A stretch of DNA of 64,000 nucleotides from the NCBI RefSeq assembly GCF_055900595.2, contig NZ_CM148325.1; one strand, written 5' to 3'. A program made the translations under genes and the position numbers. Below, piece by piece: positions 5,099-35,529 of this stretch (within the stretch, counting starts at the first letter, position 1; every line of letters begins with the position of its first letter). Below the pieces are notes generated by a model. It ran no database searches, was not told the origin of the DNA, and was given only the letters and a program-made list of their open reading frames with translations.

Positions 5099-5139
5099 GG
5101 CATCCTCCGGTTAAGTTTTTCTCATTAACCGAAGGATAC

Positions 5140-5161
5140 ACTCTGGAGTCGACTCCAGAGT
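5140..5161 (-). promoter_or_regulatory. ZntR (MerR-family) operator in the zntA promoter
   Basis: Perfect 22-bp palindrome ACTCTGGAGTCGACTCCAGAGT about 40 bp upstream of the zntA start. Confidence 0.8.
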
Positions 5162-5170
5162 CAAGTTTTA

Positions 5171-5797: not shown

Positions 5798-5937
5798 CTT
5801 AGTTCCTTGAATTCGTTATTTTTTCGTAAGCGGAATGCCTACGGTCTTGCTTCCAGTTTAGTGGCGAGGGTGGACGGATGACAACACCATAACTGGCAGG
5901 GTATGCTTATTTCCGCATTTTCCGATGAGGGATAAAG

Positions 5938-6297
5938 ATGAGCAAACCACCTCTTTTCTTTATTGTTATCATTGGCTTAATTATCGTCGCCGCATCGTTT
6001 CGTTTTATGCAACAGCGACGGGAAAAAGCTGATAATGATATAGCGCCACTCCAGCAAAAGTTGGTGGTGGTGAGCAATAAGCGGGAAAAACCGATTAACG
6101 ATCGCCGTTCGCGCCAGCAGGAAGTGACACCGGCAGGTACCAGCATGCGCTATGAGGCGAGCTTCAAACCGCAAAGCGGAGGAATGGAACAGACCTTTCG
6201 CCTCGACGCCCAGCAGTACCACGCCCTGACAGTGGGCGATAAAGGTACGCTGAGCTATAAAGGAACGCGCTTTGTCAGCTTTGTCAGCAAACAATAA
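5938..6297 (+). CDS. yhhM: DUF2500-type membrane-anchored protein YhhM
   Basis: 119 aa, single N-terminal TM segment, synteny. Confidence 0.85.
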   Translation: MSKPPLFFIVIIGLIIVAASFRFMQQRREKADNDIAPLQQKLVVVSNKREKPINDRRSRQQEVTPAGTSMRYEASFKPQSGGMEQTFRLDAQQYHALTVGDKGTLSYKGTRFVSFVSKQ

Positions 6298-6299
6298 GG

Positions 6300-6569
6300 T
6301 TATTTTTTAACGTTAAATTTCTTCTGCCAGACCAGCAGTTCAAATACGCCGAAAAGGAAAATGCGCACCTTTTCGGCGGTGGTCATCTGCGGGCCATCTT
6401 TCGGTAAAGTGGATTTCAACAGCGCCAGCTGCATACCATGCATCAGCACGGTGAAAATCAGCGCCACGTTAACGAAAATATTCAGCGGACGCGGGAAGGG
6501 ATGCACCAGGTTGAGGATTAAAAATCCCCAAACACAGAGCATTAACACACGACCAATATTAATCAGCAT
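6300..6569 (-). CDS. yhhL: Small membrane protein YhhL (DUF1145)
   Basis: 89-aa product from internal Met (MLINIGRVLML...); upstream part of the 130-aa ORF overlaps rsmD and is treated as non-coding. Confidence 0.75.
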   Translation of the reverse strand: MLINIGRVLMLCVWGFLILNLVHPFPRPLNIFVNVALIFTVLMHGMQLALLKSTLPKDGPQMTTAEKVRIFLFGVFELLVWQKKFNVKK

Positions 6570-9514: not shown

Positions 9515-10565
9515 GCGCGATGCAATCAATCATATCCGGCAGTTTGGCGGGCGTCTGGATCGCTTCCGTAAATCGGTCGGCGGCTCTGGCGACGGCGGTC
9601 GTAACGCGCCGAAACGCGCGAAATCCTCGCCAAAACCGGTAAATCGCAAAACTAACGTTTTCAACGAACAGGTGCGCTATGCTTTCCACGGCGCTTTGCA
9701 GGATCTGAAAAGCAAACCGTTCGCCACGTTTTTAACGGTGATGGTTATCGCCATCTCCCTGACGCTGCCCAGCGTCTGTTATATGGTGTACAAAAACGTT
9801 AATCAGGCGGCGACGCAGTATTATCCGTCACCGCAAATCACCGTTTATCTGCAAAAAACGCTGGACGATGACGCCGCTGCGGGCGTGGTGGCACAGTTGC
9901 AGGCCGAGCAAGGCGTAGAGAAAGTGAATTATCTTTCTCGTGAAGACGCACTGGGGGAGTTCCGTAACTGGTCTGGTTTTGGTGGTGCGCTGGATATGCT
10001 GGAAGAAAACCCGCTTCCGGCAGTGGCGGTGGTAATCCCGAAACTCGATTTTCAGGGGACCGAGTCACTGAATACCTTGCGCGATCGTATCACCCAGATC
10101 AACGGCATTGACGAAGTGCGAATGGATGACAGCTGGTTTGCCCGTCTGGCGGCGTTGACCGGGCTGGTTGGGCGCGTTTCGGCAATGATCGGCGTATTGA
10201 TGGTGGCGGCAGTGTTCCTCGTCATCGGTAACAGTGTGCGTCTGAGCATCTTTGCTCGCCGTGACTCCATTAACGTACAGAAACTGATTGGTGCGACAGA
10301 TGGTTTCATCCTGCGCCCATTCCTGTACGGTGGCGCATTGCTGGGATTTTCTGGCGCATTGCTGTCATTAATTTTGTCGGAAATTCTGGTCCTGCGTTTG
10401 TCTTCGGCGGTTGCGGAAGTGGCGCAGGTTTTCGGAACGAGGTTTGATATCAATGGCTTATCTTTTGATGAATGCCTGCTATTGCTGCTGGTATGCTCGA
10501 TGATTGGCTGGGTGGCAGCCTGGCTTGCCACGGTACAACATTTACGCCACTTTACGCCTGAATAA
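9507..10565 (+). CDS. ftsX: Cell-division ABC permease-like protein FtsX
   Basis: Start at internal Met (MNKRDAINH), 8-nt overlap with ftsE; 4 TM C-terminal domain. Confidence 0.93.
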
Positions 10566-10582
10566 TAAAAGCGTGTTATACT

Positions 10583-10615
10583 CTTTCCCTGCAATGGGTT
10601 CCGTAGCAGGGAAAG
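10583..10615. other. Inverted repeat (10-bp perfect stem, 13-nt loop) downstream of ftsX, no U-tract
   Basis: CTTTCCCTGC ... GCAGGGAAAG. Confidence 0.4.
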
Positions 10616-19000: not shown

Positions 19001-19747
19001 ATGCATTATGCCGTTGTCGTCATGCTTGAACTGCTTTGCTGTATTCACGCTTATCGCTCCGGACAAGAGCGATACTGGATTTTTATTATCTTCTGTTTTC
19101 CGGTGATTGGCTGCGTGGCGTATTTCGTCATGGTTATGCTGCCTGAAACGGGCGCTGACCGTCACGGGCGTACTTTGCTGATGCGCCTGCAGGACAAAAT
19201 CAGCCCGGAACGCCACCTGCACAAATTAACCGAAGAGCTGGCGATTGCCGAGACCAATCAAAACCATTATGCGTTAGCTAACGAACTGGCGCGCCTTGGG
19301 CGTTATCACGAAGCCGTTCCCCATTATCAGCAGGCGTTAAGCGGAATTTTCGCCCATGAAGCGGTAATGATGTTAAGCCTGGCGCAGGCGCAATTTGCTA
19401 TTCAGGAGTTCGCCGCCTGTCAGCAGATGCTGGAAGATGTGATGCGTTATAACCCCGATTTTCAGTCGGCAGACGGGCATTTGTTATTTGCCAGAGCGTT
19501 AGCCGCACAAGAAAAATACGCTGATGCGGAAAGCGAGTTTGAGGTGCTTGTTTCTTATTACCCCGGCCCGCAGGCACGTATTTACTATGCGGAAATGTTG
19601 GCGAAAATGAGTCGGTTACGTGAAGCCAACGAGCAGTATGTTGCTGTAGTTGATACGGCTAAACGCTCAAGACCTCATTATAGAAAACACCACCGGGAAT
19701 GGATTAAGACCGCCAATGAACGGCTGAAGCAGAGTGTGGTGCAATGA
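19001..19747 (+). CDS. Hypothetical protein: N-terminal PLDc_N-like two-helix membrane anchor plus TPR-like helical domain (248 aa)
   Basis: Long ORF with E. coli-like codon usage; N-terminus YWIFIIFCFPVIGCVAYFV resembles the N-terminal membrane motif of cardiolipin synthase; the rest is helical-repeat (TPR-like); SD-like GGAAAGG about 10 nt upstream; two hairpin terminators downstream. Confidence 0.7.
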   Translation: MHYAVVVMLELLCCIHAYRSGQERYWIFIIFCFPVIGCVAYFVMVMLPETGADRHGRTLLMRLQDKISPERHLHKLTEELAIAETNQNHYALANELARLGRYHEAVPHYQQALSGIFAHEAVMMLSLAQAQFAIQEFAACQQMLEDVMRYNPDFQSADGHLLFARALAAQEKYADAESEFEVLVSYYPGPQARIYYAEMLAKMSRLREANEQYVAVVDTAKRSRPHYRKHHREWIKTANERLKQSVVQ

Positions 19748-19816
19748 AAATCTTCTTTGCCGTTAGACCAGTGTCGCGGCAATCTTTTGTTAAAATTGAA
19801 AAATGTAGCTCTCATC

Positions 19817-19856
19817 GGGCAGCAAAACTGGACGCAGAATTTGCTGCCATTTTTGC
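19817..19856 (+). terminator. Hairpin plus T-tract downstream of the 248-aa ORF
   Basis: GGCAGCAAA ... TTTGCTGCC then ATTTTTG. Confidence 0.6.
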
Positions 19857-19876
19857 TCTTCATGGTAAGGAGTTCT

Positions 19877-19907
19877 GGCGATTAGCTGACCGTTAATCGC
19901 CTCTTTT
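19877..19907 (+). terminator. Second hairpin plus T-tract upstream of the ugpB promoter
   Basis: GGCGATTA-gctgaccg-TAATCGCC then TCTTTTC. Confidence 0.6.
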
Positions 19908-19970
19908 CAGTGCATTCTCGGGATATCCGTGCCCCATCTCCCAATTTCCCTCACCCACGCCGTCACCGCC

Positions 19971-19988
19971 TTGTCATCTTTCTGACAC
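19971..19988 (+). promoter_or_regulatory. Pho box (PhoB site) of the ugpB promoter
   Basis: TTGTCATctttCTGACAC matches the CTGTCAT-N4-CTGTCAC consensus, about 120 bp upstream of ugpB. Confidence 0.7.
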
Positions 19989-20106
19989 CTTACTATCTTA
20001 CAAATGTAACAAAAAAGTTATTTTTCTGTAATTCGAGCATGTCATGTTACCCCGCGAGCATAAAACGCGTGAATTCGCGCATTCGGTACAACAAGAGAGA
20101 TAAACG

Positions 20107-21423
20107 ATGAAACCGTTACATTATACAGCTTCAGCACTGGCGCTCGGACTGGCGTTAATGGGGAATGCACAGGCAGTGACGACCATTCCGTTCTGGCATT
20201 CTATGGAAGGGGAACTGGGTAAAGAGGTGGATTCTCTTGCCCAACGTTTTAACGCCGAAAACCCGGATTACAAAATTGTACCGACCTATAAAGGCAACTA
20301 CGAACAGAATTTAAGCGCGGGGATTGCCGCATTTCGTACCGGCAACGCGCCGGCTATTTTGCAGGTTTATGAAGTTGGCACCGCCACCATGATGGCGTCG
20401 AAAGCCATTAAACCGGTATATGACGTGTTTAAAGAGGCGGGGATTCAATTCGATGAGTCGCAGTTTGTGCCGACGGTTTCAGGCTACTACTCCGACAGCA
20501 AAACCGGACATTTACTCTCCCAGCCGTTCAACAGCTCGACTCCTGTTCTCTATTACAACAAAGATGCTTTCAAGAAAGCGGGATTAGACCCGGAACAGCC
20601 GCCGAAAACCTGGCAGGATCTGGCAGACTATGCCGCGAAACTGAAAGCCTCTGGTATGAAGTGCGGCTACGCCAGCGGCTGGCAGGGCTGGATCCAACTG
20701 GAAAACTTTAGCGCCTGGAACGGTCTGCCGTTTGCCAGCAAAAACAACGGCTTTGACGGCACGGACGCGGTGCTTGAGTTCAACAAGCCGGAGCAGGTGA
20801 AACACATCGCCATGCTCGAAGAGATGAACAAGAAGGGCGATTTCAGTTACGTAGGGCGTAAGGATGAATCTACCGAGAAGTTCTATAACGGTGATTGCGC
20901 GATGACGACCGCCTCTTCGGGTTCTCTTGCCAACATTCGCGAGTACGCCAAATTCAACTACGGCGTAGGTATGATGCCTTACGACGCCGATGCGAAAGAT
21001 GCGCCACAAAACGCCATTATCGGCGGAGCCAGCCTGTGGGTGATGCAGGGCAAAGATAAAGAAACTTACACCGGCGTGGCGAAGTTTCTCGACTTCCTCG
21101 CGAAGCCAGAAAACGCTGCCGAGTGGCATCAGAAAACCGGTTATCTGCCAATTACCAAAGCGGCGTATGACCTGACCCGTGAGCAGGGCTTTTATGAGAA
21201 AAACCCAGGGGCGGATACTGCGACGCGTCAGATGCTGAACAAGCCGCCGTTGCCGTTCACCAAAGGGCTGCGTCTGGGCAACATGCCGCAGATCCGCGTG
21301 ATTGTGGATGAAGAGCTGGAAAGCGTGTGGACCGGTAAGAAGACGCCACAGCAGGCGCTGGATACCGCTGTTGAGCGTGGGAACCAGTTACTGCGCCGCT
21401 TTGAGAAATCTACGAAGTCTTAA
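20107..21423 (+). CDS. ugpB: sn-Glycerol-3-phosphate-binding periplasmic protein
   Basis: 438 aa with signal peptide, synteny. Confidence 0.96.
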
Positions 21424-21432
21424 CCAGTGAAA

Positions 21433-21500
21433 TGTCGGATGCGTTTCGCTTATCTGACCTGGCATCGCGTGTAGGCCGGATAAGCGAAGCGCATCCGGCA
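21433..21500. repeat. REP elements between ugpB and ugpA
   Basis: gtaggccggataagcgaagcgcatccggca plus an imperfect upstream unit. Confidence 0.8.
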
Positions 21501-21520
21501 CAGTTCAGGAATTAACCGTA

Positions 21521-22408
21521 ATGTCATCATCCCGTCCGGTGTTCCGCTCGCGCTGGCTGCCTTATTTGCTGGTCGCGCCGCAGCTTATCATCACCGTTAT
21601 CTTTTTTATCTGGCCTGCGGGCGAAGCGTTGTGGTACTCGCTACAAAGCGTCGATCCATTTGGCTTTTCCAGCCAGTTTGTCGGCCTGGATAACTTCGTC
21701 ACGCTGTTTCATGACAGCTACTATCTCGACTCCTTCTGGACGACGATAAAATTCAGCACCTTTGTCACCGTCAGCGGTTTGCTGGTGTCGCTGTTCTTCG
21801 CGGCGCTGGTGGAGTACATCGTGCGCGGCAGCCGTTTCTATCAAACCTTAATGCTGCTGCCGTATGCCGTGGCTCCCGCCGTTGCCGCCGTATTGTGGAT
21901 CTTCCTGTTTAACCCTGGTCGCGGGCTGATCACTCATTTTCTCGCTGAGTTCGGCTACGACTGGAACCATGCGCAAAACAGCGGTCAGGCAATGTTCCTG
22001 GTGGTGTTTGCCTCAGTATGGAAGCAAATCAGCTACAACTTTCTGTTCTTCTATGCCGCGCTGCAATCCATTCCCCGTTCGTTGATTGAAGCCGCAGCCA
22101 TCGACGGTGCAGGCCCGATTCGCCGCTTCTTTAAGATTGCGCTGCCGCTGATTGCGCCGGTGAGCTTCTTCCTGCTGGTGGTGAACCTGGTGTACGCCTT
22201 CTTCGACACCTTCCCGGTGATCGATGCCGCCACGTCCGGCGGACCAGTACAGGCCACCACGACGCTGATTTATAAGATCTACCGCGAAGGCTTTACCGGA
22301 CTGGATCTGGCTTCGTCTGCCGCGCAGTCGGTGGTGTTGATGTTCCTCGTCATCGTGCTGACGGTGGTGCAGTTCCGCTATGTTGAAAGCAAGGTGCGTT
22401 ACCAATGA
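21521..22408 (+). CDS. ugpA: sn-Glycerol-3-phosphate ABC permease
   Basis: 295-aa membrane protein. Confidence 0.95.
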
Positions 22409-23250
22409 TTGAGAACCGTCCGTGGCTGACAATATTCAGCCATACCATGCTGATCCTCGGGATCGCGGTGATCCTCTTCCCGTTGTACGTGGCGTTTGTC
22501 GCGGCGACGCTGGATAAACAGGCCGTCTACGCCGCGCCGATGACGCTCATCCCCGGCACGCATCTGTTGGAAAACATCCACAACATCTGGGTGAACGGGG
22601 TAGGCACAAATAGCGCGCCGTTCTGGCGGATGTTGCTTAACAGCTTCGTGATGGCGTTCAGCATTACGCTCGGCAAAATTACCGTCTCGATGCTCTCGGC
22701 ATTTGCCATTGTCTGGTTTCGTTTTCCGCTGCGTAACCTCTTCTTCTGGATGATTTTTATCACCCTGATGCTGCCAGTTGAAGTGCGTATCTTCCCGACA
22801 GTAGAAGTCATCGCCAATCTGAATATGCTCGACAGCTACGCTGGTTTAACGCTGCCGCTGATGGCCTCGGCAACCGCTACCTTCCTGTTCCGCCAGTTCT
22901 TTATGACGCTACCGGATGAGCTGGTGGAAGCGGCGCGGATCGACGGTGCGTCACCAATGCGTTTCTTTTGCGACATCGTTTTCCCGCTGTCGAAAACCAA
23001 TCTGGCGGCGCTGTTTGTGATCACTTTTATTTACGGCTGGAACCAGTATTTGTGGCCGTTGTTGATTATTACCGACGTTGATCTCGGCACCACCGTGGCA
23101 GGAATCAAAGGGATGATCGCTACAGGCGAAGGCACCACGGAATGGAATTCGGTGATGGCGGCGATGTTGTTAACGCTTATCCCTCCGGTGGTGATTGTTT
23201 TAGTGATGCAGCGTGCCTTCGTGCGCGGCCTGGTCGATAGTGAGAAATAA
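22405..23250 (+). CDS. ugpE: sn-Glycerol-3-phosphate ABC permease
   Basis: 281 aa; 4-nt overlap with ugpA. Confidence 0.95.
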
Positions 23251-23251
23251 G

Positions 23252-24322
23252 ATGGCAGGACTGAAATTACAGGCAGTAACCAAAAGCTGGGATGGCAAAA
23301 CCCAGGTCATTAAACCGCTGACCCTTGATGTGGCGGATGGCGAATTTATCGTGATGGTCGGGCCGTCTGGCTGCGGGAAATCCACGCTGCTGCGCATGGT
23401 TGCCGGGCTGGAGCGGGTCACCGAAGGCGATATCTGGATTAACGACCAACGCGTGACCGAAATGGAGCCGAAAGATCGCGGGATTGCGATGGTGTTCCAG
23501 AACTACGCTCTTTATCCGCATATGAGTGTCGAAGAAAACATGGCGTGGGGGCTGAAAATTCGCGGCATGGGCAAGCAACAAATTGCCGAACGTGTTAAAG
23601 AAGCGGCGCGTATTCTGGAGCTGGATGGCCTGCTCAAGCGTCGTCCGCGTGAGCTTTCTGGCGGTCAGCGTCAGCGTGTAGCGATGGGCCGTGCGATTGT
23701 GCGCGATCCGGCGGTGTTCCTGTTTGATGAGCCGCTCTCTAACCTCGATGCCAAGCTGCGCGTGCAGATGCGCCTTGAGCTGCAACAACTGCACCGTCGC
23801 CTGAAAACGACTTCACTCTACGTTACTCACGATCAGGTTGAGGCGATGACGCTCGCTCAGCGGGTAATGGTGATGAACGGCGGCATTGCTGAACAGATTG
23901 GCACACCAGTTGAAGTCTACGAAAAGCCCGCCAGCCTGTTTGTGGCGAGTTTTATCGGTAGTCCGGCGATGAATCTGCTGACAGGCCGCGTGAATAACGA
24001 TGGCACGCATTTCGAACTGGATGGGGGGATGGCGCTACCGCTAAACGGTGGCTACCGTCAGTATGCCGGACGTAAAATGACTCTTGGCATTCGCCCGGAA
24101 CATATTGCGTTAAGCTCGCAGGCAGAAGGTGGCATACCGCTGGTGATGGACACGCTGGAGATCCTCGGCGCAGATAACCTGGCGCACGGACGCTGGGGCG
24201 AACAGAAGCTGGTGGTGCGACTGGCGCATCAGGAGCGCCCGACGGCAGGCAGCACGCTGTGGCTGCATCTGCCGGAAAATCAGCTGCATCTTTTTGATGG
24301 TGAAACAGGACAACGAGTATGA
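23252..24322 (+). CDS. ugpC: sn-Glycerol-3-phosphate ABC ATPase
   Basis: Start at internal Met MAGLKLQAV; Walker [10 protein letters not shown]; MalK-like C-terminal domain. Confidence 0.95.
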
Positions 24323-25062
24323 GTAACTGGCCTTATCCCCGCATCGTCGCCCACCGTGGCGGCGGTAAACTGGCCCCGGAAAACACCCTGGCGGCAATCG
24401 ACGTTGGGGCAAAATACGGTCATAAGATGATCGAATTTGACGCGAAGTTATCGAAAGATGGTGAGATCTTCCTGCTGCATGACGATAATCTCGAGCGTAC
24501 CAGCAATGGTTGGGGCGTCGCGGGCGAACTGAACTGGCAGGATTTACTGCGCGTGGATGCAGGCAGTTGGTACAGCAAAGCGTTTAAAGGTGAGCCGCTG
24601 CCGTTGCTTTCTCAGGTGGCGGAACGCTGTCGCGAACACGGGATGATGGCGAATATCGAAATCAAACCCACCACTGGCACAGGTCCATTAACGGGCAAAA
24701 TGGTATCGCTGGCGGCGCGCGAACTGTGGGCTGGTATGACGCCGCCGCTGCTGTCATCGTTTGAGATTGATGCTTTAGAAGCCGCGCAACAGGCTGCACC
24801 GGAACTGCCGCGCGGTTTGTTGCTGGATGAGTGGCGCGACGACTGGCGCGAACTGACCACGCGGCTGGGCTGCGTCTCTATTCATCTCAATCATAAGTTG
24901 CTCGATAAAGCGCGAGTGATGCAGTTGAAAGACGCTGGATTACGGATTCTGGTTTATACCGTCAACAAACCCCAGCGCGCGGCAGAGTTGCTGCGCTGGG
25001 GCGTGGATTGCATCTGTACCGATGCGATTGATGTGATTGGCCCGAACTTTACGGCCCAATAG
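24319..25062 (+). CDS. ugpQ: Glycerophosphodiester phosphodiesterase
   Basis: 247 aa; HRG motif (IVAHRGGG). Confidence 0.95.
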
Positions 25063-25489
25063 TTTTCAACGGAATATCAGGCTGCGGCGTGCTGGGCTGA
25101 TTCAGCATGTCGCCGTTTCTCCTCTCCGGCAACATATGCTGCTGATTCAACGAACTATCCGGATTACGGTTGCTGTTTAACATCCCGCCGTTGGTGTTGG
25201 GCAGCATTTGCTGCCGGGCGGGATTTAGCTCCCCCGGCTGTGACTGCAATACCCGCTGCGAGTTGCTATTAAGCTGATTTTCTAAATGCTGCTGTTGCAA
25301 CTGCGTTTGCGTTTTCAGTTGCTGATTCAGCATCCCTTTTTGCTGGATTTGCTGCGTTTGCATTTGAGTTTGCATTCGCTGCTGGCTGGGGATCTGATAC
25401 CCCGGCTGGTTAGGGTTGTTCAGAGTATTAATGGGCTGTGCAAAGCCGACAAAAGGCAGGAGTGCCGTCAAAAGCAGAAGTCGTTTCAT
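25049..25489 (-). CDS. yhhA: Secreted Gln/Asn-rich protein YhhA (DUF2756)
   Basis: 146 aa, signal peptide, low-complexity Q-rich body. Confidence 0.85.
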
Positions 25490-25608
25490 CGCGTATCCTT
25501 CTCTGAAGATATTCTTTAAGTTTACTCCTTTCCTGCAATCATCAGGATTAATTCAGAGTTATATACCAGGCTTAGCTGGGGTTGCCCCTTAATCTCTGGA
25601 GTATAACG

Positions 25609-27354
25609 ATGATAAAACCGACGTTTTTACGCCGGGTGGCTATTGCTGCTCTGCTCACAGGAAGTTGTTTTAGTGCTGTCGCCGCGCCACCTGCGCCGCC
25701 GCCAGTCTCGTATGGCGTGGAGGAGGATGTCTTCCATCCGGTACGCGCGAAGCAGGGGATGGTAGCATCTGTGGACGCCACTGCCACTCAGGTGGGGGTA
25801 GATATCCTTAAGCAGGGCGGGAATGCCGTTGATGCTGCCGTGGCAGTGGGCTACGCGCTGGCGGTAACGCATCCGCAGGCAGGGAATCTGGGCGGCGGCG
25901 GTTTTATGCTGATCCGCACTAAAGATGGCAATACCACCGCCATCGATTTCCGCGAAATGGCACCCGCCAAAGCGACCCGCGATATGTTCCTTGATGATCA
26001 GGGCAACCCGGACAGCAAAAAATCTCTCACTTCGCATCTTGCTTCTGGCACACCCGGTACGGTAGCGGGCTTCTCGTTGGCGCTGGAGAAATACGGCACC
26101 ATGCCGCTGAACAAAGTTGTGCAGCCCGCGTTTAAACTGGCACGCGATGGTTTTATCGTTAACGATGCGCTGGCAGACGATCTCAAAACCTACGGCAGTG
26201 AAGTGCTACCAAATCACGAAAACAGCAAAGCTATCTTCTGGAAAGAGGGCGAACCGCTGAAAAAGGGCGACAAGCTGGCACAGACGAATCTGGCAAAGAG
26301 TCTGGAGATGATTGCCGAAAACGGCCCGGATGAATTCTACAAAGGCACGATAGCGGAACAGATCGCCCTGGAGATGCAGAAAAACGGTGGCTTGATCACT
26401 AAAGAAGATTTAGCGGCCTATAAAGCGGTCGAACGTACACCAATAAGTGGCGATTATCGCGGGTATCAGGTTTACTCCATGCCACCGCCATCCTCCGGCG
26501 GGATTCATATCGTGCAGATCCTCAATATTCTGGAAAACTTCGATATGCAGAAATACGGCTTTGGCAGCGCCGACGCGATGCAAATCATGGCAGAAGCGGA
26601 GAAACATGCCTACGCCGATCGCTCGGAATATCTTGGCGACCCGGATTTTGTCAAAGTACCGTGGCAGGCGCTGACCAATAAAGCCTATGCCAAATCTATT
26701 GCCGATCAAATCGATATCAATAAAGCGAAGCCATCCAGCGAAATTCGTCCTGGCAAGCTTGCGCCTTATGAGAGTAATCAAACTACCCATTACTCAGTGG
26801 TGGATAAAGACGGTAACGCCGTGGCGGTGACCTATACGCTGAACACCACCTTCGGTACGGGCATTGTCGCGGGCGAGAGCGGTATTTTGCTCAATAACCA
26901 GATGGATGATTTCTCCGCCAAACCGGGCGTACCGAACGTTTACGGGCTGGTGGGCGGCGATGCCAACGCCGTCGGGCCGAATAAACGCCCGCTGTCGTCG
27001 ATGTCACCAACCATTGTGGTCAAGGATGGTAAAACCTGGCTGGTCACCGGAAGCCCAGGCGGTAGCCGGATTATCACCACTGTGCTGCAAATGGTGGTGA
27101 ACAGCATCGATTATGGCATGAATGTCGCCGAAGCGACCAATGCGCCGCGTTTCCACCATCAGTGGTTGCCGGACGAGCTGCGTGTCGAGAAAGGATTTAG
27201 CCCGGATACGCTCAAGCTGCTGGAAGCAAAAGGTCAGAAAGTGGCGCTAAAAGAGGCGATGGGCAGTACGCAAAGTATTATGGTTGGGCCGGACGGTGAG
27301 TTATACGGCGCTTCCGACCCACGTTCGGTAGATGATTTAACGGCCGGGTATTAA
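25609..27354 (+). CDS. ggt: Gamma-glutamyltranspeptidase
   Basis: Start at internal Met MIKPTFLRR (signal peptide); autoprocessing-site region TTHYSVVDKDGNAV. Confidence 0.96.
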   Translation: MIKPTFLRRVAIAALLTGSCFSAVAAPPAPPPVSYGVEEDVFHPVRAKQGMVASVDATATQVGVDILKQGGNAVDAAVAVGYALAVTHPQAGNLGGGGFMLIRTKDGNTTAIDFREMAPAKATRDMFLDDQGNPDSKKSLTSHLASGTPGTVAGFSLALEKYGTMPLNKVVQPAFKLARDGFIVNDALADDLKTYGSEVLPNHENSKAIFWKEGEPLKKGDKLAQTNLAKSLEMIAENGPDEFYKGTIAEQIALEMQKNGGLITKEDLAAYKAVERTPISGDYRGYQVYSMPPPSSGGIHIVQILNILENFDMQKYGFGSADAMQIMAEAEKHAYADRSEYLGDPDFVKVPWQALTNKAYAKSIADQIDINKAKPSSEIRPGKLAPYESNQTTHYSVVDKDGNAVAVTYTLNTTFGTGIVAGESGILLNNQMDDFSAKPGVPNVYGLVGGDANAVGPNKRPLSSMSPTIVVKDGKTWLVTGSPGGSRIITTVLQMVVNSIDYGMNVAEATNAPRFHHQWLPDELRVEKGFSPDTLKLLEAKGQKVALKEAMGSTQSIMVGPDGELYGASDPRSVDDLTAGY

Positions 27355-27361
27355 TATCTTA

Positions 27362-27390
27362 AGCCCTCTCCCGGTAGGTGAGGGCTTTTA
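27362..27390. terminator. Hairpin terminator between convergent ggt and yhhY
   Basis: AGCCCTC ... GAGGGCT followed by TTTTAG. Confidence 0.7.
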
Positions 27391-27403
27391 GATTACAAAT
27401 TCT

Positions 27404-27892
27404 CTATTTCACCCGCGCCATATAATACGCATCGACATATTCACCGTTTCGTAATGCGTACTTCTTGCCAGTCCCTTCAATTTCAAAGCCGAATTTTTTA
27501 TAGACCTTAATTGCTGGCGCGTTATCAACGAACACCGTTAGTTCAATACGATCTACCCGCAACCAGTTGTCGCACATTTCAATCATCTCTCGCATCAGGG
27601 CGCTGGCGACGCCGCGGTTCTTCCAGCGGGAGTCGACACAGATACCAAAGTCGGCAACATGACTGCGGCGTGGGCGTTGCTGTACGTCAATAGTGAGATG
27701 ACCCACGACGTCTCCATCAATACAGGCGACGAGTTGCTTGATGCCGGGACGATCGGCGAGTCGCTCCTGCCACATTGGCTCTGACGGATGAGGCACCTGT
27801 AGCGTGTTGTAATACACCTCCGGTTGGGCGTGAATTTGCCTGATGGCCTCGTAATCCCGTGTTTCTGCGTGGCGTATTACTATCTCACTCAT
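27404..27892 (-). CDS. yhhY: GNAT-family N-acetyltransferase
   Basis: Start at internal Met MSEIVIRHAETRDYEAIRQIH; upstream part of the 188-aa ORF treated as non-coding. Confidence 0.88.
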   Translation of the reverse strand: MSEIVIRHAETRDYEAIRQIHAQPEVYYNTLQVPHPSEPMWQERLADRPGIKQLVACIDGDVVGHLTIDVQQRPRRSHVADFGICVDSRWKNRGVASALMREMIEMCDNWLRVDRIELTVFVDNAPAIKVYKKFGFEIEGTGKKYALRNGEYVDAYYMARVK

Positions 27893-27990
27893 TCCTTTGT
27901 CCTCTTTGGGGTAAATGTCCCTTTCAACATCATTGACTTTCAAATGCGAGTCAAATGCATTTTTTTGCAAAAAGTGTTGGACAAGTGCGA

Positions 27991-28009
27991 ATGAGAATGA
28001 TTATTATTG
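27991..28009 (+). promoter_or_regulatory. Fur box overlapping the ryhB promoter
   Basis: atgagaatgattattattg resembles the GATAATGATAATCATTATC consensus, immediately 5' of RyhB. Confidence 0.7.
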
Positions 28010-28013
28010 TCTC

Positions 28014-28104
28014 GCGATCAGGAAGACCCTCGCGGAGAACCTGAAAGCACGACATTGCTCACATTGCTTCCAGTATTACTTAGCCAGCCGGGTGCTGGCT
28101 TTTT
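28014..28104 (+). ncRNA. ryhB: RyhB small regulatory RNA (iron-sparing, Fur-repressed)
   Basis: Sequence GCGATCAGGAAGACCCTCGCGGAGAACCTGAAAGCACGACATTGCTCACATTGCTTCCAGTATTACTTAGCCAGCCGGGTGCTGGCTTTT recognised; ends in hairpin plus T8 terminator. Confidence 0.93.
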
Positions 28105-28225
28105 TTTTGACCTTTCGTTCTCAATTTATCCACGGGAAGTGCTTGTGTTTGTTATGCGCACTCCTGTAGGAACCACGTCCGCTTTGCGCTAAGGTGTAAC
28201 TAACCACCTTAAAAAGGACGAAATC

Positions 28226-29263
28226 ATGGTCATCAACTGCGCCTTTATTGGCTTTGGTAAAAGCACGACCCGTTACCATTTACCGTATGTACTTAACCGC
28301 AAGGATAGCTGGCATGTCGCGCATATTTTTCGCCGCCATGCGAAGCCGGAAGAACAGGCTCCCATTTATTCCCATATTCATTTCACCAGCGATCTCGACG
28401 AAGTGCTAAACGATCCTGACGTTAAGTTGATTGTCGTCTGCACCCACGCGGACAGCCACTTCGAGTACGCGAAGCGCGCGCTGGAAGCCGGGAAAAATGT
28501 GCTGGTCGAAAAACCGTTCACCCCGACACTTGCGCAGGCGAAAGAGCTGTTTGCGCTGGCGAAAAGTAAAGGGCTGACCGTCACGCCGTATCAGAATCGT
28601 CGCTTTGATTCCTGTTTTCTGACGGCGAAAAAAGCGATTGAAAGCGGCAAGCTGGGAGAGATTGTTGAAGTGGAAAGCCATTTTGACTATTACCGCCCAG
28701 TGGCAGAAACCAAACCTGGACTGCCGCAGGATGGCGCGTTCTATGGCCTTGGTGTGCATACGATGGACCAGATTATCTCGCTGTTCGGTCGCCCGGATCA
28801 CGTCGCTTATGACATCCGCAGCCTGCGTAATAAAGCCAATCCTGACGACACCTTTGAAGCGCAGCTATTTTATGGCGATCTAAAAGCCATCGTCAAAACC
28901 AGCCATCTGGTGAAAATCGATTATCCGAAATTTATCGTTCATGGGAAGAAAGGTTCGTTTATTAAATACGGTATCGACCAGCAGGAAACCAGCCTGAAGG
29001 CTAACATTATGCCCGGCGAACCGGGATTCGCAGCGGATGATTCGGTCGGTGTGCTGGAGTATGTCAATGACGAGGGCGTTACGGTCAGAGAAGAGATGAA
29101 GCCGGAGATGGGCGATTACGGACGCGTTTATGATGCGTTGTACCAAACCATCACCAACGGTGCACCAAATTACGTCAAGGAATCTGAAGTTCTTACCAAT
29201 CTGGAAATCCTTGAACGCGGTTTTGAGCAAGCCTCTCCCTCCACAGTGACTCTTGCGAAGTAA
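28226..29263 (+). CDS. yhhX: Gfo/Idh/MocA-family oxidoreductase
   Basis: 345 aa, N-terminal Rossmann motif, synteny. Confidence 0.9.
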   Translation: MVINCAFIGFGKSTTRYHLPYVLNRKDSWHVAHIFRRHAKPEEQAPIYSHIHFTSDLDEVLNDPDVKLIVVCTHADSHFEYAKRALEAGKNVLVEKPFTPTLAQAKELFALAKSKGLTVTPYQNRRFDSCFLTAKKAIESGKLGEIVEVESHFDYYRPVAETKPGLPQDGAFYGLGVHTMDQIISLFGRPDHVAYDIRSLRNKANPDDTFEAQLFYGDLKAIVKTSHLVKIDYPKFIVHGKKGSFIKYGIDQQETSLKANIMPGEPGFAADDSVGVLEYVNDEGVTVREEMKPEMGDYGRVYDALYQTITNGAPNYVKESEVLTNLEILERGFEQASPSTVTLAK

Positions 29264-29385
29264 GTTTGATGACCTCTCGAATAGTTCAATTTTTTTGAAC
29301 AGAGGGGTCAATTTTCACCCTCTATCATCCCAGGCGGATCGGGTCCACACTAAGCCCATCGAAATCATTCAGGGGGCGAATACAA

Positions 29386-30081
29386 ATGATCTACTTACGC
29401 AAAGCAAATGAACGTGGTCATGCAAATCATGGCTGGCTGGACTCCTGGCATACTTTCTCTTTTGCCAACTATTACGACCCGAACTTTATGGGCTTCTCCG
29501 CGCTGCGCGTGATTAACGACGACGTGATTGAAGCAGGGCAGGGCTTCGGCACTCACCCGCATAAAGATATGGAAATTTTGACCTACGTGCTGGAAGGTAC
29601 TGTTGAGCACCAGGACAGCATGGGCAATAAAGAGCAGGTTCCGGCGGGCGAGTTCCAGATTATGAGTGCGGGTACGGGTATTCGTCACTCAGAGTACAAC
29701 CCAAGCAGCACTGAGCGTCTGCACCTGTATCAGATCTGGATCATGCCAGAAGAAAATGGTATTACGCCGCGTTATGAACAGCGTCGCTTTGATGCCGTAC
29801 AGGGTAAACAGCTGGTGCTCTCGCCGGATGCGCGAGATGGTTCATTGAAAGTGTATCAGGATATGGAACTGTACCGCTGGGCGCTGCTGAAAGATGAGCA
29901 GTCGGTGCATCAGATTGCCGCTGAACGCCGCGTCTGGATCCAGGTGGTGAAAGGTAATGTCACCATTAACGGCGTAAAAGCTTCGATCAGCGATGGTCTG
30001 GCAATCTGGGATGAGCAGGCAATCTCCATCCACGCTGACAGCGACAGCGAAGTGTTACTGTTCGATCTGCCTCCGGTTTAA
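29386..30081 (+). CDS. yhhW: Pirin-like quercetin 2,3-dioxygenase
   Basis: 231 aa, cupin His motif (GFGTHPHKDMEI). Confidence 0.9.
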   Translation: MIYLRKANERGHANHGWLDSWHTFSFANYYDPNFMGFSALRVINDDVIEAGQGFGTHPHKDMEILTYVLEGTVEHQDSMGNKEQVPAGEFQIMSAGTGIRHSEYNPSSTERLHLYQIWIMPEENGITPRYEQRRFDAVQGKQLVLSPDARDGSLKVYQDMELYRWALLKDEQSVHQIAAERRVWIQVVKGNVTINGVKASISDGLAIWDEQAISIHADSDSEVLLFDLPPV

Positions 30082-30304
30082 AACTTAACGGCATTTTTGA
30101 AGCCTGCCTTTTTGCGGGCTTCATCGCTCGCCCCGGTCTCGTGCTAATGTACGCGACCGGGGTTTTGTCGCGTCTTTAGCACAATGCGATGCAATTGATT
30201 TAGTGTATATCTAATAATTATAAACAAGCACTGTTTTCTCCGGGAAGGTTCTGATGCGTCCGTGTTAAACTAAGAGAATCTATCTCTTTTGTACCTTCAG
30301 GACG

Positions 30305-31300
30305 ATGAAAAAGAAAAGACCCGTACTTCAGGATGTGGCTGACCGTGTTGGCGTGACCAAAATGACGGTCAGCCGTTTTTTACGCAACCCGGAGCAGGTT
30401 TCCGTCGCTCTACGTGGCAAGATTGCCGCCGCTCTTGATGAACTGGGTTATATTCCCAATCGCGCACCCGATATCCTCTCTAACGCCACCAGCCGGGCGA
30501 TTGGCGTCCTGTTACCTTCACTCACTAACCAGGTTTTCGCTGAAGTATTACGCGGTATCGAAAGCGTCACCGACGCACACGGTTATCAGACGATGCTGGC
30601 GCACTACGGTTATAAACCGGAAATGGAGCAAGAACGCCTCGAATCAATGCTTTCCTGGAATATCGACGGACTTATTCTCACCGAACGTACCCACACGCCC
30701 CGCACCTTAAAAATGATTGAAGTAGCGGGTATTCCGGTGGTGGAGCTGATGGACAGTAAGTCGCCGTGTCTCGATATCGCCGTCGGTTTTGATAACTTTG
30801 AAGCGGCACGCCAGATGACCACCGCCATTATTGCTCGCGGGCATCGTCACATTGCCTATCTCGGCGCACGCCTCGACGAACGTACTATCATCAAACAGAA
30901 GGGATATGAGCAGGCGATGCTGGATGCAGGCCTGGTGCCGTATAGCGTGATGGTCGAGCAATCTTCTTCTTACTCTTCCGGTATTGAACTGATTCGCCAG
31001 GCGCGGCGGGAATATCCGCAGCTGGATGGCGTATTTTGTACTAATGATGACCTGGCGGTCGGCGCGGCGTTTGAATGTCAGCGTCTGGGGCTGAAAGTTC
31101 CTGACGATATGGCGATTGCCGGTTTCCACGGTCATGACATTGGTCAGGTGATGGAGCCACGGCTGGCGAGCGTGCTGACGCCGCGTGAGCGGATGGGCAG
31201 CATTGGCGCTGAGCGCCTGCTGGCGCGTATTCGTGGCGAATCTGTGACACCGAAAATGTTAGATTTAGGTTTCACCTTGTCACCAGGCGGATCTATTTAA
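30305..31300 (+). CDS. gntR: Gluconate repressor (LacI family)
   Basis: N-terminal HTH (LQDVADRVGVTKMTVSRFL). Confidence 0.95.
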   Translation: MKKKRPVLQDVADRVGVTKMTVSRFLRNPEQVSVALRGKIAAALDELGYIPNRAPDILSNATSRAIGVLLPSLTNQVFAEVLRGIESVTDAHGYQTMLAHYGYKPEMEQERLESMLSWNIDGLILTERTHTPRTLKMIEVAGIPVVELMDSKSPCLDIAVGFDNFEAARQMTTAIIARGHRHIAYLGARLDERTIIKQKGYEQAMLDAGLVPYSVMVEQSSSYSSGIELIRQARREYPQLDGVFCTNDDLAVGAAFECQRLGLKVPDDMAIAGFHGHDIGQVMEPRLASVLTPRERMGSIGAERLLARIRGESVTPKMLDLGFTLSPGGSI

Positions 31301-31378
31301 GCTCACAAATTTGAAGTAGCTCACACTTATACACTTAAGGCACGGATGGATATTGCTTCTGTTTTTGTCCGGCTGGAC

Positions 31379-31408
31379 AATGTTACCGATAACAGTTACC
31401 CGTAACAT
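31379..31408 (+). promoter_or_regulatory. GntR operator region in the gntK promoter
   Basis: Tandem palindromic ATGTTACCGATAACA / GTTACCCGTAACAT motifs about 30 bp upstream of the gntK start. Confidence 0.7.
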
Positions 31409-31439
31409 TTTCTGATTCTTGTATTGTGGGGGCACCACT

Positions 31440-31967
31440 TTGAGCACGACTAACCATGATCACCACATTTACGTCTTGATGGGCGTATCGGGCAGCGGCA
31501 AATCTGCAGTCGCCAGTGAAGTGGCGCATCAACTTCATGCCGCGTTTCTTGATGGCGATTTCCTCCATCCGCGCTGCAATATCGAAAAAATGGCGTCTGG
31601 CGAACCGCTGAACGACGACGATCGCAAACCGTGGTTACAGGCGCTTAACGACGCCGCGTTTGCCATGCAGCGCACCAATAAAGTGTCGCTGATCGTCTGT
31701 TCTGCACTGAAAAAGCACTATCGCGACCTGCTGCGTGAAGGTAATCCGAATCTCTCTTTCATCTACCTGAAAGGCGATTTTGATGTAATTGAAAGCCGTC
31801 TGAAAGCGCGCAAAGGCCATTTCTTTAAAACCCAAATGCTGGTGACGCAGTTTGAAACGCTGCAGGAGCCGGGTGCGGACGAAACCGATGTACTGGTGGT
31901 GGATATCGATCAACCGCTGGAAGGTGTTGTGGCAAGCACCATTGAGGTTATTAATAAAGGCAAATAA
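31440..31967 (+). CDS. gntK: Gluconokinase (thermoresistant)
   Basis: TTG start giving MSTTNHDHHIYVLMGVSGSGKS (P-loop). Confidence 0.93.
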   Translation: MSTTNHDHHIYVLMGVSGSGKSAVASEVAHQLHAAFLDGDFLHPRCNIEKMASGEPLNDDDRKPWLQALNDAAFAMQRTNKVSLIVCSALKKHYRDLLREGNPNLSFIYLKGDFDVIESRLKARKGHFFKTQMLVTQFETLQEPGADETDVLVVDIDQPLEGVVASTIEVINKGK

Positions 31968-31970
31968 GTA

Positions 31971-33311
31971 GTGACTACATTAACGCTTGTTTTAACAGCA
32001 GTAGGGTCTGTTTTACTGCTGCTGTTTTTAGTCATGAAGGCGCGTATGCACGCTTTCCTGGCTTTGATGGTGGTGTCTATGGGGGCTGGCCTTTTTTCCG
32101 GCATGCCGCTCGATAAAATCGCAGCGACGATGGAAAAAGGGATGGGAGGCACCCTCGGCTTCCTGGCGGTAGTTGTCGCCCTGGGAGCCATGTTTGGCAA
32201 GATCTTACATGAAACCGGCGCAGTCGATCAGATTGCCGTCAAAATGCTCAAATCCTTCGGTCACAGTCGTGCGCATTATGCCATTGGCCTTGCGGGTCTG
32301 GTCTGTGCGCTACCGCTGTTCTTTGAAGTGGCGATTGTCCTGTTGATTAGCGTTGCTTTCTCAATGGCGCGCCACACCGGTACGAACCTGGTGAAACTGG
32401 TAATCCCATTATTCGCAGGCGTGGCGGCAGCGGCGGCGTTCCTGGTGCCGGGGCCTGCGCCAATGCTATTGGCATCGCAGATGAACGCTGACTTTGGCTG
32501 GATGATCCTGATTGGCCTGTGTGCGGCAATCCCGGGAATGATTATTGCCGGGCCGCTGTGGGGTAATTTCATCAGCCGCTACGTGGAGCTGCATATTCCT
32601 GACGATATCAGCGAACCGCATCTCGGCGAAGGCAAAATGCCGTCCTTCGGATTCAGCCTGTCGCTGATCCTGCTGCCGCTGGTGCTGGTGGGGCTGAAAA
32701 CCATTGCCGCGCGTTTTGTGCCGGAAGGCTCTACCGCTTACGAATGGTTCGAGTTTATCGGTCATCCGTTTACCGCAATTCTGGTCGCTTGCCTGGTAGC
32801 AATTTACGGCCTGGCGATGCGTCAGGGTATGCCGAAAGACAAAGTGATGGAGATTTGTGGTCACGCGCTGCAACCGGCGGGGATCATTCTGCTGGTGATT
32901 GGTGCAGGCGGCGTGTTCAAACAGGTGCTGGTTGACTCTGGCGTAGGTCCGGCACTGGGCGAAGCGTTAACCGGCATGGGCCTGCCGATTGCCATCACCT
33001 GCTTTGTGCTGGCTGCGGCGGTGCGTATCATTCAGGGTTCTGCCACCGTTGCCTGTTTAACGGCGGTGGGACTGGTGATGCCGGTTATTGAACAACTGAA
33101 CTACTCCGGTGCGCAAATGGCGGCGCTGTCGATTTGTATCGCCGGTGGTTCGATTGTTGTCAGCCACGTTAACGACGCCGGTTTCTGGTTGTTCGGTAAA
33201 TTTACCGGCGCGACCGAAGCCGAAACGCTGAAAACCTGGACCATGATGGAAACCATCCTCGGCACCGTTGGTGCCATCGTCGGGATGATTGCGTTCCAGC
33301 TGTTGAGTTAA
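31971..33311 (+). CDS. gntU: Low-affinity gluconate transporter
   Basis: GTG start, 446-aa GntP-family permease. Confidence 0.94.
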   Translation: MTTLTLVLTAVGSVLLLLFLVMKARMHAFLALMVVSMGAGLFSGMPLDKIAATMEKGMGGTLGFLAVVVALGAMFGKILHETGAVDQIAVKMLKSFGHSRAHYAIGLAGLVCALPLFFEVAIVLLISVAFSMARHTGTNLVKLVIPLFAGVAAAAAFLVPGPAPMLLASQMNADFGWMILIGLCAAIPGMIIAGPLWGNFISRYVELHIPDDISEPHLGEGKMPSFGFSLSLILLPLVLVGLKTIAARFVPEGSTAYEWFEFIGHPFTAILVACLVAIYGLAMRQGMPKDKVMEICGHALQPAGIILLVIGAGGVFKQVLVDSGVGPALGEALTGMGLPIAITCFVLAAAVRIIQGSATVACLTAVGLVMPVIEQLNYSGAQMAALSICIAGGSIVVSHVNDAGFWLFGKFTGATEAETLKTWTMMETILGTVGAIVGMIAFQLLS

Positions 33312-33319
33312 GTTTGTTC

Positions 33320-33353
33320 GCCCGGTAGTTGTGACGCTACCGGGCTCTTTTCG
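33320..33353. terminator. Hairpin terminator between convergent gntU and yhgN
   Basis: GCCCGGTAG-ttgtgacg-CTACCGGGC followed by TCTTTTCG. Confidence 0.75.
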
Positions 33354-33367
33354 AAAAACTCTCCTCG

Positions 33368-33961
33368 TTACCCCTTCATCCACATTCGAATGCCGTCGAG
33401 GAACATCTGAGTTGCCATCATCACCAGAATCAATCCCATCAGGCGTTCCAGCGCGTTCACCCCTTTCTCTCCCAGCAGACGCAAGAACAGCGAAGACTGT
33501 AGCAGGATGACAAAGGTGCCGCCCCAGGCCAGCAGCAGGGCAATCACCAGATGCCCCATCTGATTCGGGTACTGATGAGACAACAACATCAGCGTGGCGA
33601 GAATAGTCGGCCCGGCGACTAACGGAATTGCCAACGGCACGATAAACGGCTCTTCACCTGCCGGAAGCCCACTGCTATTTCCTGAAGCACTGGGGAAAAT
33701 CATCTTAATGGCGATCAGAAACAGAATGATGCCGCCAGAAATGGAGACGGTTTCTGCCCGCAGGCTAAGAAATGCCAGAATTTTCTCACCCGCAAACAGG
33801 AACACCAGCATCACCAGGAGAGCAATAAGCAACTCTCGCACCATGATTGCCCGCCGTCTTTTCGGTTCAGTATGTTTCAGTACGGACATGAAAATAGGTA
33901 GGTTTCCGAGCGGATCCATAATCAGGATCAATAAAACTGCTGCAGAAATGATTTCATTCAT
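33368..33961 (-). CDS. yhgN: MarC-family membrane protein
   Basis: 197-aa polytopic membrane ORF, synteny. Confidence 0.9.
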   Translation of the reverse strand: MNEIISAAVLLILIMDPLGNLPIFMSVLKHTEPKRRRAIMVRELLIALLVMLVFLFAGEKILAFLSLRAETVSISGGIILFLIAIKMIFPSASGNSSGLPAGEEPFIVPLAIPLVAGPTILATLMLLSHQYPNQMGHLVIALLLAWGGTFVILLQSSLFLRLLGEKGVNALERLMGLILVMMATQMFLDGIRMWMKG

Positions 33962-34153
33962 AACTCAAATTCCCTGATAATTGCCGCGGACTTTCTGCGT
34001 GCTAACAAAGCAGGATAAGTCGCATTACTGATGGCTTCGCTATCATTGATTAATTTCACTTGCGACTTTGGCTGCTTTTTGTATGGTGAAAGATGTGCCA
34101 CGAGGAGACCGGCACATTTATACAGCACACATCTTTGCAGGAAAAAAACGCTT

Positions 34154-35257
34154 ATGAAAAATGTTGGTTTTATCGGCTGGCGCGGTATGGTCGGCTCCGT
34201 TCTCATGCAACGCATGGTTGAAGAGCGCGACTTCGACGCCATTCGCCCTGTCTTCTTTTCTACTTCTCAGCTTGGCCAGGCTGCGCCGTCTTTTGGCGGA
34301 ACCACTGGCACACTTCAGGATGCCTTTGATCTGGAGGCGCTAAAGGCCCTCGATATCATTGTGACCTGTCAGGGCGGCGATTATACCAACGAAATCTATC
34401 CAAAGCTTCGTGAAAGCGGATGGCAAGGTTACTGGATTGACGCAGCATCATCTCTGCGCATGAAAGATGACGCCATCATCATTCTTGACCCCGTCAATCA
34501 GGACGTCATTACCGACGGATTAAATAATGGCATCAGGACTTTTGTTGGCGGTAACTGTACCGTAAGCCTGATGTTGATGTCGTTGGGGGGTTTATTCGCC
34601 AATGATCTTGTTGATTGGGTGTCCGTTGCAACCTACCAGGCCGCTTCCGGCGGTGGTGCGCGACATATGCGTGAGTTATTAACCCAGATGGGCCATCTGT
34701 ATGGCCATGTGGCAGATGAACTCGCGACCCCGTCCTCTGCTATTCTCGATATCGAACGCAAAGTCACAACTTTAACCCGTAGCGGTGAGCTGCCGGTGGA
34801 TAACTTTGGCGTGCCGCTGGCGGGTAGCCTGATTCCGTGGATCGACAAACAGCTCGATAACGGTCAGAGCCGCGAAGAGTGGAAAGGGCAGGCGGAAACC
34901 AACAAGATCCTCAACACATCTTCCGTAATTCCGGTAGATGGTTTATGTGTGCGTGTCGGGGCATTGCGCTGCCACAGCCAGGCATTCACTATTAAATTGA
35001 AAAAAGATGTGTCTATTCCGACCGTGGAAGAACTACTGGCTGCGCACAATCCGTGGGCGAAAGTCGTTCCGAACGATCGGGAAATCACTATGCGTGAGCT
35101 AACCCCAGCTGCCGTTACCGGCACGCTGACCACGCCGGTAGGCCGTCTGCGTAAGCTGAATATGGGGCCGGAGTTCCTGTCAGCCTTTACCGTGGGCGAC
35201 CAGCTGCTGTGGGGGGCCGCGGAGCCGCTGCGTCGGATGCTTCGTCAACTGGCGTAA
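34154..35257 (+). CDS. asd: Aspartate-semialdehyde dehydrogenase
   Basis: Start at internal Met [16 protein letters not shown]; active-site region GGNCTVS. Confidence 0.96.
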
Positions 35258-35529
35258 TCTTTATTCATTAAATCTGGGGCGCGTTGCCGCCCCTGTTAGT
35301 GCGTAATACAGGAGTAAGCGCAGATGTTTCATGATTTACCGGGAGTTAAATAGAGCATTGGCTATTCTTTAAGGGTGGCGGAATACAAGAGTATTTACAG
35401 CCTTACCTGAAGTGAGGACGACGCAGAGAGGATGCACAGAGTGCTGCGCCGTTCAGGTCAAAAAAATGTCACAACCAGAAGTCAAAAATTCAGTTGGATG
35501 GGGTGACACAATAAAACAGGAAGACAAGC

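Follow-up and report, generated by a model that had tools for sequence, protein, structure and literature searches.

In E. coli K-12 MG1655 the stop codons of yhhY and ggt lie 3,454 bp apart, whereas in the 64,000-nucleotide stretch of DNA analysed here (the window) they face each other across exactly 49 bp (27355–27403). This raises the question of whether the short spacer is the scar of a lost segment or the state of the site before the segment arrived. The gene ggt (gamma-glutamyltransferase) occupies 25609–27354 on the plus strand in the ORF list and ends in the stop codon TAA at 27352–27354; it was identified by NCBIfam NF007187 (E = 0, 1310 bits), the profile match beginning at residue 10 of the TTG-started ORF, and RefSeq annotates it at 1,746 bp in NZ_CP098223, a 100% identical genome. 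On the minus strand, yhhY (GNAT N-acetyltransferase) occupies 27404–27892, with its stop codon at 27404–27406 (NCBIfam NF007527, 4e-111; ORF list; RefSeq annotation of the identical genome). Both NCBIfam models are of equivalog level. The preliminary description of two directly convergent genes 49 bp apart, with a single hairpin between them, was borne out: ggt ends at 27354, the yhhY stop codon starts at 27404 and one hairpin spans 27361–27387.

The interval in MG1655 contains yhhZ, yrhA split by IS1E (insA6/insB6), yrhD and yrhB. The K-12 arrangement given in the preliminary description, about 3 kb including an IS1 copy, agrees with this, and the gene order stated there, yhhZ-yrhA-IS1-yrhB, is correct as listed and omits yrhD. 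By BLAST, the window matches K-12 up to 27354, where ggt ends, and again from 27400, four bases ahead of the yhhY stop codon. The 49-bp junction does not occur in K-12, as the MG1655 comparison proposed at the outset confirmed. The K-12 yhhZ-yrhA-yrhD-yrhB segment and the window spacer thus occupy the same chromosomal site, bounded by the stop codons of ggt and yhhY, but the whole island is absent from the window, which has only the 49-bp spacer of ancestral type. Apart from IS1, the K-12 island has a GC content of 30–35%, against 50–55% in its flanks. Neither island genes nor the DUF4225 cassette described below are encoded anywhere in the window.

The hairpin, AAGCCCTC-tcccggtaggt-GAGGGCTT, begins 7 nt past the ggt stop codon. 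Its arms (27361–27368, AAGCCCTC; 27380–27387, GAGGGCTT) form a GC-rich stem of 8 bp around a loop of 11 nt (27369–27379) that contains two inner pairs. The folding energy is −18.8 kcal/mol on the plus strand and −18.5 kcal/mol on the minus strand, corresponding to z values of −3.7 and −3.5 against dinucleotide shuffles, of which 0 and 2 out of 200, respectively, folded equally well. A TTTT run on the plus strand (27386–27389) overlaps the 3′ arm and extends past it, giving the ggt transcript a short U-tract. Only the 49-bp allele has this run; in its place the 60-bp allele reads GAGGGCTTAAATG. The tail reads TTTTAGAT on the plus strand (5 T in 8) and TTAAGATA on the minus strand. A simple terminator pattern scan did not flag the hairpin because the loop of 11 nt exceeds the 8 nt allowed by the scan.

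A stable GC-rich stem-loop directly downstream of the ggt stop codon is what is expected of an intrinsic terminator. Like terminators shared by convergent genes, the structure lies 3′ of the stop codon and is accompanied by a T run on the ggt strand; it differs from them in a U-tract of only four T's, in the poor tail on the yhhY strand and in the long loop. The best available evidence for a function of the predicted hairpin is the conservation of its position: the stem arms are invariant in the alignment of Escherichia spacers, and other genera have a GC-rich hairpin of different sequence at the same position. Folding energy and cross-species conservation together suggest that the hairpin is probably an intrinsic terminator of ggt and, on the opposite strand, possibly a less effective one for yhhY. 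The hairpin sequence has one match in the 64-kb window with up to 3 mismatches allowed, and the palindrome is not a recurrent element of the REP/BIME kind within the window. By eye, the spacers of Klebsiella, Citrobacter and Enterobacter resemble REP elements. In the spacer of E. albertii the stem arms are unchanged, but the loop they enclose reads as the E. coli loop in reverse complement (GCCTACCGG vs CCGGTAGG), which looks like an inversion.

The 16 kb around the site are 95.6–96.0% identical to nearly all E. coli, with only eight genomes reaching at least 99%, and identity to other Escherichia species is 93–94.5%. Genomes identical to the window at the junction number eight and include E200086, E400634, E500002, E600003 and 100117. 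The first four are designated ‘Cryptic I’ and the last ‘Cryptic’; they are eatA-positive GEMS isolates of ST485, OND:H45 (PMC13064198). A dog isolate from Korea, Z0117EC0005, is 100% identical over the 16-kb query. Identity of about 96% to E. coli, together with junction identity to Cryptic I ST485 genomes, therefore assigns the window to Escherichia cryptic clade I. That the strain is not K-12, as had been proposed from the junction, is true but understates the distance, since the surrounding 16 kb differ to this extent from nearly all E. coli.

A 16-kb query centred on the junction (window 19355–35403) matched 5,425 of 5,426 complete E. coli genomes over very different spans, and allele states were defined from representative loci. 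Empty alleles have 49 bp, as in the window, or 60 bp, as in ST131 CU568-3 and in CB6837. Occupied alleles comprise yrhB alone (431 bp; CPEC80), the intact yhhZ-yrhA-yrhD-yrhB island (2,676 bp; ATCC 25922, MINF_1D), the same island plus IS1E (3,454 bp; K-12), IS1-adjacent deletion forms (867 and 2,464 bp; EC190486 and PK8217) and an unrelated DUF4225 cassette (1,855 bp; O157:H7); in DCE7, a 60-bp empty allele is interrupted in its hairpin loop by ISEc13 (1,621 bp). About 4,069 of the 5,426 genomes (75%) have the yrhB/yhhZ island, whole or as a remnant, with yrhB present in 4,049 at a coverage of at least 80% and in 4,069 with any match, and yhhZ-yrhA in 3,768. Some 985 genomes (18%) have the empty-type spacer, and the DUF4225 cassette occurs in 343 (6%), all copies being at least 99% identical to each other. 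These counts follow from BLAST coverage rules rather than from a curated pangenome, and about 29 genomes fall outside the classes. The figure of 985 was obtained by blastn with a 96-bp spacer-centred query and supersedes 909, obtained by megablast with a 251-bp query; the latter was set aside as joining of pieces could admit yrhB-only alleles and word-size limits could lose variants.

The site thus has conserved flanking genes between which strains carry either nothing or one of two or more unrelated cargoes, and since IS insertions and IS1-mediated deletions add further states, the term variable site is justified. The preliminary description of the junction as an insertion hotspot is well founded, given the two or more unrelated cargoes, ISEc13 in the hairpin loop, the IS1-driven deletions and a metNIQ-like insert in Franconibacter. 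Integration hotspots in the chromosome, flanked by conserved core genes, are familiar in E. coli from strain-specific K- and O-islands and from pan-genome hotspot surveys. The ggt-yhhY site resembles them in its conserved flanking core genes, its several alternative cargoes and its variable occupancy across the species; it differs in the small size of the cargoes (0.4–3.5 kb) and in having no tRNA gene, integrase or att repeats. No paper naming ggt-yhhY as a hotspot was found by a text search that was weak, ‘GGT’ being matched mostly as a codon, and a literature search on yrhA/yrhB returned nothing relevant. The difference from K-12 is an ordinary and largely known presence/absence polymorphism.

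In DCE7 (locus 537–2158), ISEc13 has Tn5/IS50-like ends, and CCCGGTAGGTG is apparently duplicated in its flanks. The yhhY gene of ATCC 25922 (locus 10096–10584) has an internal stop and a pseudogene annotation, and that of EC190486 is truncated by IS1; this island-flanking gene is therefore dispensable in some strains. A RecQ family helicase and DprA were considered as a third cargo of the site and rejected, as the annotated regions place the pair between gntU and yhgN. That interval is a second tight convergent junction in the window, of about 56 bp (33312–33367, gntU stop to yhgN stop). In ST131, O157:H7 and ATCC 25922 it contains a 3.3-kb pair annotated as a RecQ-family helicase, frameshifted in O157, and a DprA-like protein; the pair is absent from the window and from K-12.

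The polarity of the polymorphism was read from other species. YhhY relatives were sought in one genome per species, which gave 40 loci, 38 of them also containing ggt. The two genes are convergent, with stop codons 34–122 bp apart, in 34 of these 38, including E. albertii (62 bp), E. whittamii (70 bp) and Escherichia sp. E1V33 (60 bp) as well as species of Citrobacter, Enterobacter, Klebsiella, Lelliottia and Pluralibacter. Four loci depart from this pattern, namely Franconibacter pulveris (2,859 bp, with a metNIQ-like ABC transporter), the Pluralibacter MAG UBA7423 (369 bp), a locus designated L036 (231 bp) and Leclercia adecarboxylata (1,234 bp, where the gene matches are only partial). Within Escherichia, the window spacer is collinear with the 60–62 bp spacers of ST131, PapRG-06-5, Escherichia sp. 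E1V33, E. coli E69 and E. albertii. The alignment is base for base except for one deletion of 11 bp (AAATGACAAAC) just 3′ of the hairpin, at 27387/27388, which distinguishes the 49-bp allele from the genus-wide 60-bp allele, and one accompanying G-to-A change at 27395; no foreign remnant was seen in the window spacer in this alignment. The tight junction in the outgroups and the collinear Escherichia spacers together show the tight junction to be ancestral and the K-12 island to be derived. ‘Empty’ is therefore the ancestral arrangement, common to other Escherichia and to other enterobacterial genera, and not a gap relative to a K-12 norm.

These data also bear on secondary loss, according to which the yhhZ-yrhB or another island was formerly present in the lineage of the window and its deletion left the 49 bp as a scar. 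Deletions are known at the locus, namely the yrhB-only alleles and the IS1-adjacent forms, and the window spacer is 11 bp below the genus consensus. However, the missing 11 bp fall inside ancestral spacer sequence, and what is left has no bases that stem from an island and is collinear with the spacers of E. albertii, Escherichia sp. E1V33, E. coli E69 and PapRG-06-5. Clade I is, moreover, an outgroup to the island-carrying lineages, the tight arrangement prevails in other species, and the window has the empty-type hairpin, unlike the variant linked to every occupied allele (see below). Secondary loss is hence unlikely. We prefer ‘never occupied’ to ‘lost without a trace’, although recombination that had long ago cleanly exchanged an occupied allele for an empty one would give the same spacer, and empty alleles are mobile (see below).

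The content of the inserts was analysed with Pfam. In YhhZ an N-terminal T6SS_HCP domain (1e-11) is followed by a C-terminal HNH match that is sub-threshold (17.3 bits against a cutoff of 21.4 bits); YrhB is Imm35 (6e-22), and YrhA and YrhD have no Pfam match. YhhZ has been classified as an Hcp1-family His-Me finger toxin (PMC5714182), and Hcp proteins that bear a toxin at the C terminus (Hcp-ET) have been validated as T6SS effectors (PMC6730261). Among them, Hcp-ET1 is an HNH DNase with its immunity gene directly downstream (PMC6730261; bioRxiv 10.1101/2024.03.05.583533), and for Hcp-ET1/ETI1 in STEC it has been reported that delivery depends on the T6SS and that the adjacent immunity gene neutralises the toxin (Ma et al. 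2017, as reviewed in PMC6730261). From domain content and these descriptions (PMC6730261; bioRxiv 10.1101/2024.03.05.583533) we infer that YhhZ/YrhA is a pair of the Hcp-ET1/ETI1 class. K-12 is without a T6SS (PMC6730261). The K-12 insert has the make-up of an orphan T6SS effector-immunity module, with an Hcp carrier bearing a toxin domain, Imm35, and ggt and yhhY as neighbours. In MG1655 (3864–6310 of the locus) the Hcp-HNH toxin gene yhhZ is intact, whereas IS1E interrupts the neighbouring yrhA, the probable immunity gene; K-12 may, for instance, escape self-intoxication by silencing the AT-rich island.

The DUF4225 domain of the O157:H7 cassette has been shown experimentally to be an antibacterial T6SS toxin domain acting in the periplasm (PMC9765294). 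The cassette shares with the K-12-type island the left junction, the ggt-proximal hairpin variant and a T6SS-associated toxin domain, but its sequence and right junction are unrelated to that island; it is likewise absent from the window. Judged by sequence, both cargo types at ggt-yhhY are predicted orphan type VI secretion toxin modules. No convincing same-strand ORF that could serve as an immunity gene was found downstream of the O157:H7 DUF4225 gene. An unannotated ORF of 138 aa with hydrophobic, membrane-like segments (8369–8785 of the locus, plus strand) runs convergently to the DUF4225 gene, the 3′ end of which it overlaps; no Pfam family matches it significantly, and it is a possible candidate for the immunity gene. 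Immunity genes of DUF4225 toxins have been described at the downstream position (PMC9765294), whereas this ORF lies on the opposite strand.

The boundaries of the alleles give indications of how they came to be exchanged. All empty alleles have one spacer type, beginning TATCTTAAGCCCTC. All occupied alleles, whatever their cargo, have a different ggt-proximal hairpin, GGTTAGCGGCCCTCTTCGTGGGAAGAGGGC (−19.1 kcal/mol), and this variant (GCCCTCTTC...GAAGAGGGC) is closer to the spacers of E. whittamii and SCPM-O-B-8794. The background that first received an island was therefore not of the spacer type of the window. K-12-type and O157-type inserts have in common a left junction just 3′ of the ggt hairpin and differ from each other at their right edges; the K-12-type island has a hairpin of its own beside yhhY (CCCTTTTTC...GAAAAAGGG, −15.2 kcal/mol).

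The common left junction could be taken to mean that the hairpin is an attachment or target site of an integrase or transposase, into which the islands inserted as mobile units, and the same is suggested by ISEc13, which lies within this loop in one empty allele and whose flanks look like an 11-bp target duplication. The remaining features speak against it. The longest direct or inverted repeats at the island edges are 7–9 bp, within the range of shuffled controls, which reach 10–13 bp, and no recombinase gene is annotated in the intact island (ATCC 25922, MINF_1D) or was found by Pfam among the island proteins, which also applies to integrase and transposase genes. The two cargo types do not share a right junction, the IS1E of K-12 sits inside yrhA, away from the island edges, and a single ISEc13 event is an ordinary IS insertion. 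With neither an excess of flanking repeats nor a recombinase gene, the locus does not have the features of a site-specific integrative element with an att site; the island was not inserted by a site-specific, repeat-leaving mechanism, and we regard a role of the hairpin as a specific target as very improbable.

The 49-bp spacer is the same in N96, MFDS1019527 and EC42405, and its identity in lineages whose flanks differ by 5–9% shows that empty alleles move. As repeats and recombinase genes are lacking at every allele and the alleles differ across the whole spacer, exchange by homologous recombination in the flanking core genes is the most likely mode, and the cassettes themselves appear to have been acquired horizontally. 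MFDS1019527 is 97–99% identical to the window over 15 kb, including the identical 49-bp spacer, and has a tract of about 355 bp (window 27443–27797) that lowers its yhhY to 82–83% identity. This mosaicism at the junction fits exchange by homologous recombination.

A second, deeply divergent yhhY allele is present in MFDS1019527 (7481–7969), in PapRG-06-5 (2061–2549) and in EC42405. It is 80–83% identical at the nucleotide level and 84–85% at the protein level to all other Escherichia yhhY, and more distant from them than the E. albertii copy is. The divergent tract is sharply bounded and adjoins the identical spacer and flanks that are otherwise 97–99% identical.

An assembly artefact, in which an island was collapsed or dropped from the window, has nothing in its favour and can be dismissed, as the junction is 100% identical in eight independent complete genomes, the empty-type spacer recurs in roughly a thousand genomes (the 985 counted above) and the spacer is collinear with those of other species.

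Taken together, we consider it highly probable that the 49-bp spacer is ancestral and was at no time occupied, that its hairpin is a predicted ggt terminator and that E. coli gained cassettes here which were then swapped or eroded by recombination. According to this model, the hairpin would most likely terminate transcription of ggt and, less efficiently, that of yhhY. An AT-rich orphan type VI secretion toxin-immunity cassette, consisting of yhhZ (Hcp-HNH nuclease), yrhA, yrhD and yrhB (Imm35), would have entered E. coli sensu stricto between the ggt terminator and the yhhY stop codon and is now the majority allele. In K-12 it has IS1E within yrhA; in the O157/O55 lineage it would later have been replaced by the DUF4225 toxin cassette, and in other lineages it would have been eroded by IS1-mediated deletions or cut to yrhB alone, the alleles being swapped by homologous recombination in the flanking core genes. 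The lineage of the window, cryptic clade I, sister to ordinary E. coli, would have kept the original state, the 11-bp deletion beside the hairpin being its only change.

A broader reading, which we put forward tentatively as plausible rather than probable, is that ggt-yhhY serves E. coli sensu stricto as a recombinase-free landing pad for orphan type VI cassettes, with turnover by recombination in the flanks, and that the window presents the exact pre-insertion target. If this is true, such turnover would leave mosaic tracts, of which the divergent yhhY allele may be an example. With its ancestral sequence, the window allows the K-12 yhhZ-yrhB island and the O157 DUF4225 cassette to be delimited to the base. 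Since both cargoes are predicted orphan type VI modules, one of them retained in K-12 although it has no T6SS, the locus offers a natural example of cassette gain, swapping and erosion without dedicated mobility genes. The junction itself is a cheap marker that separates clade I and some E. coli lineages, such as ST131, from K-12-like strains, and has little import beyond strain typing.

Further differences and constants were seen in the surroundings of the site. The first 569 bases of the 16-kb query (window 19355–19923) are unmatched in most E. coli, including K-12. A gene for a tetratricopeptide-repeat protein of 248 aa (19001–19747, plus strand) lies between livF and ugpB in the window and in O157:H7. 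The small RNA RyhB (28043–28107, plus strand; Rfam RF00057, 83 bits, E = 1e-15) is located between yhhY and yhhX as in K-12, and a terminator-like site at 28082–28100 is the RyhB terminator.
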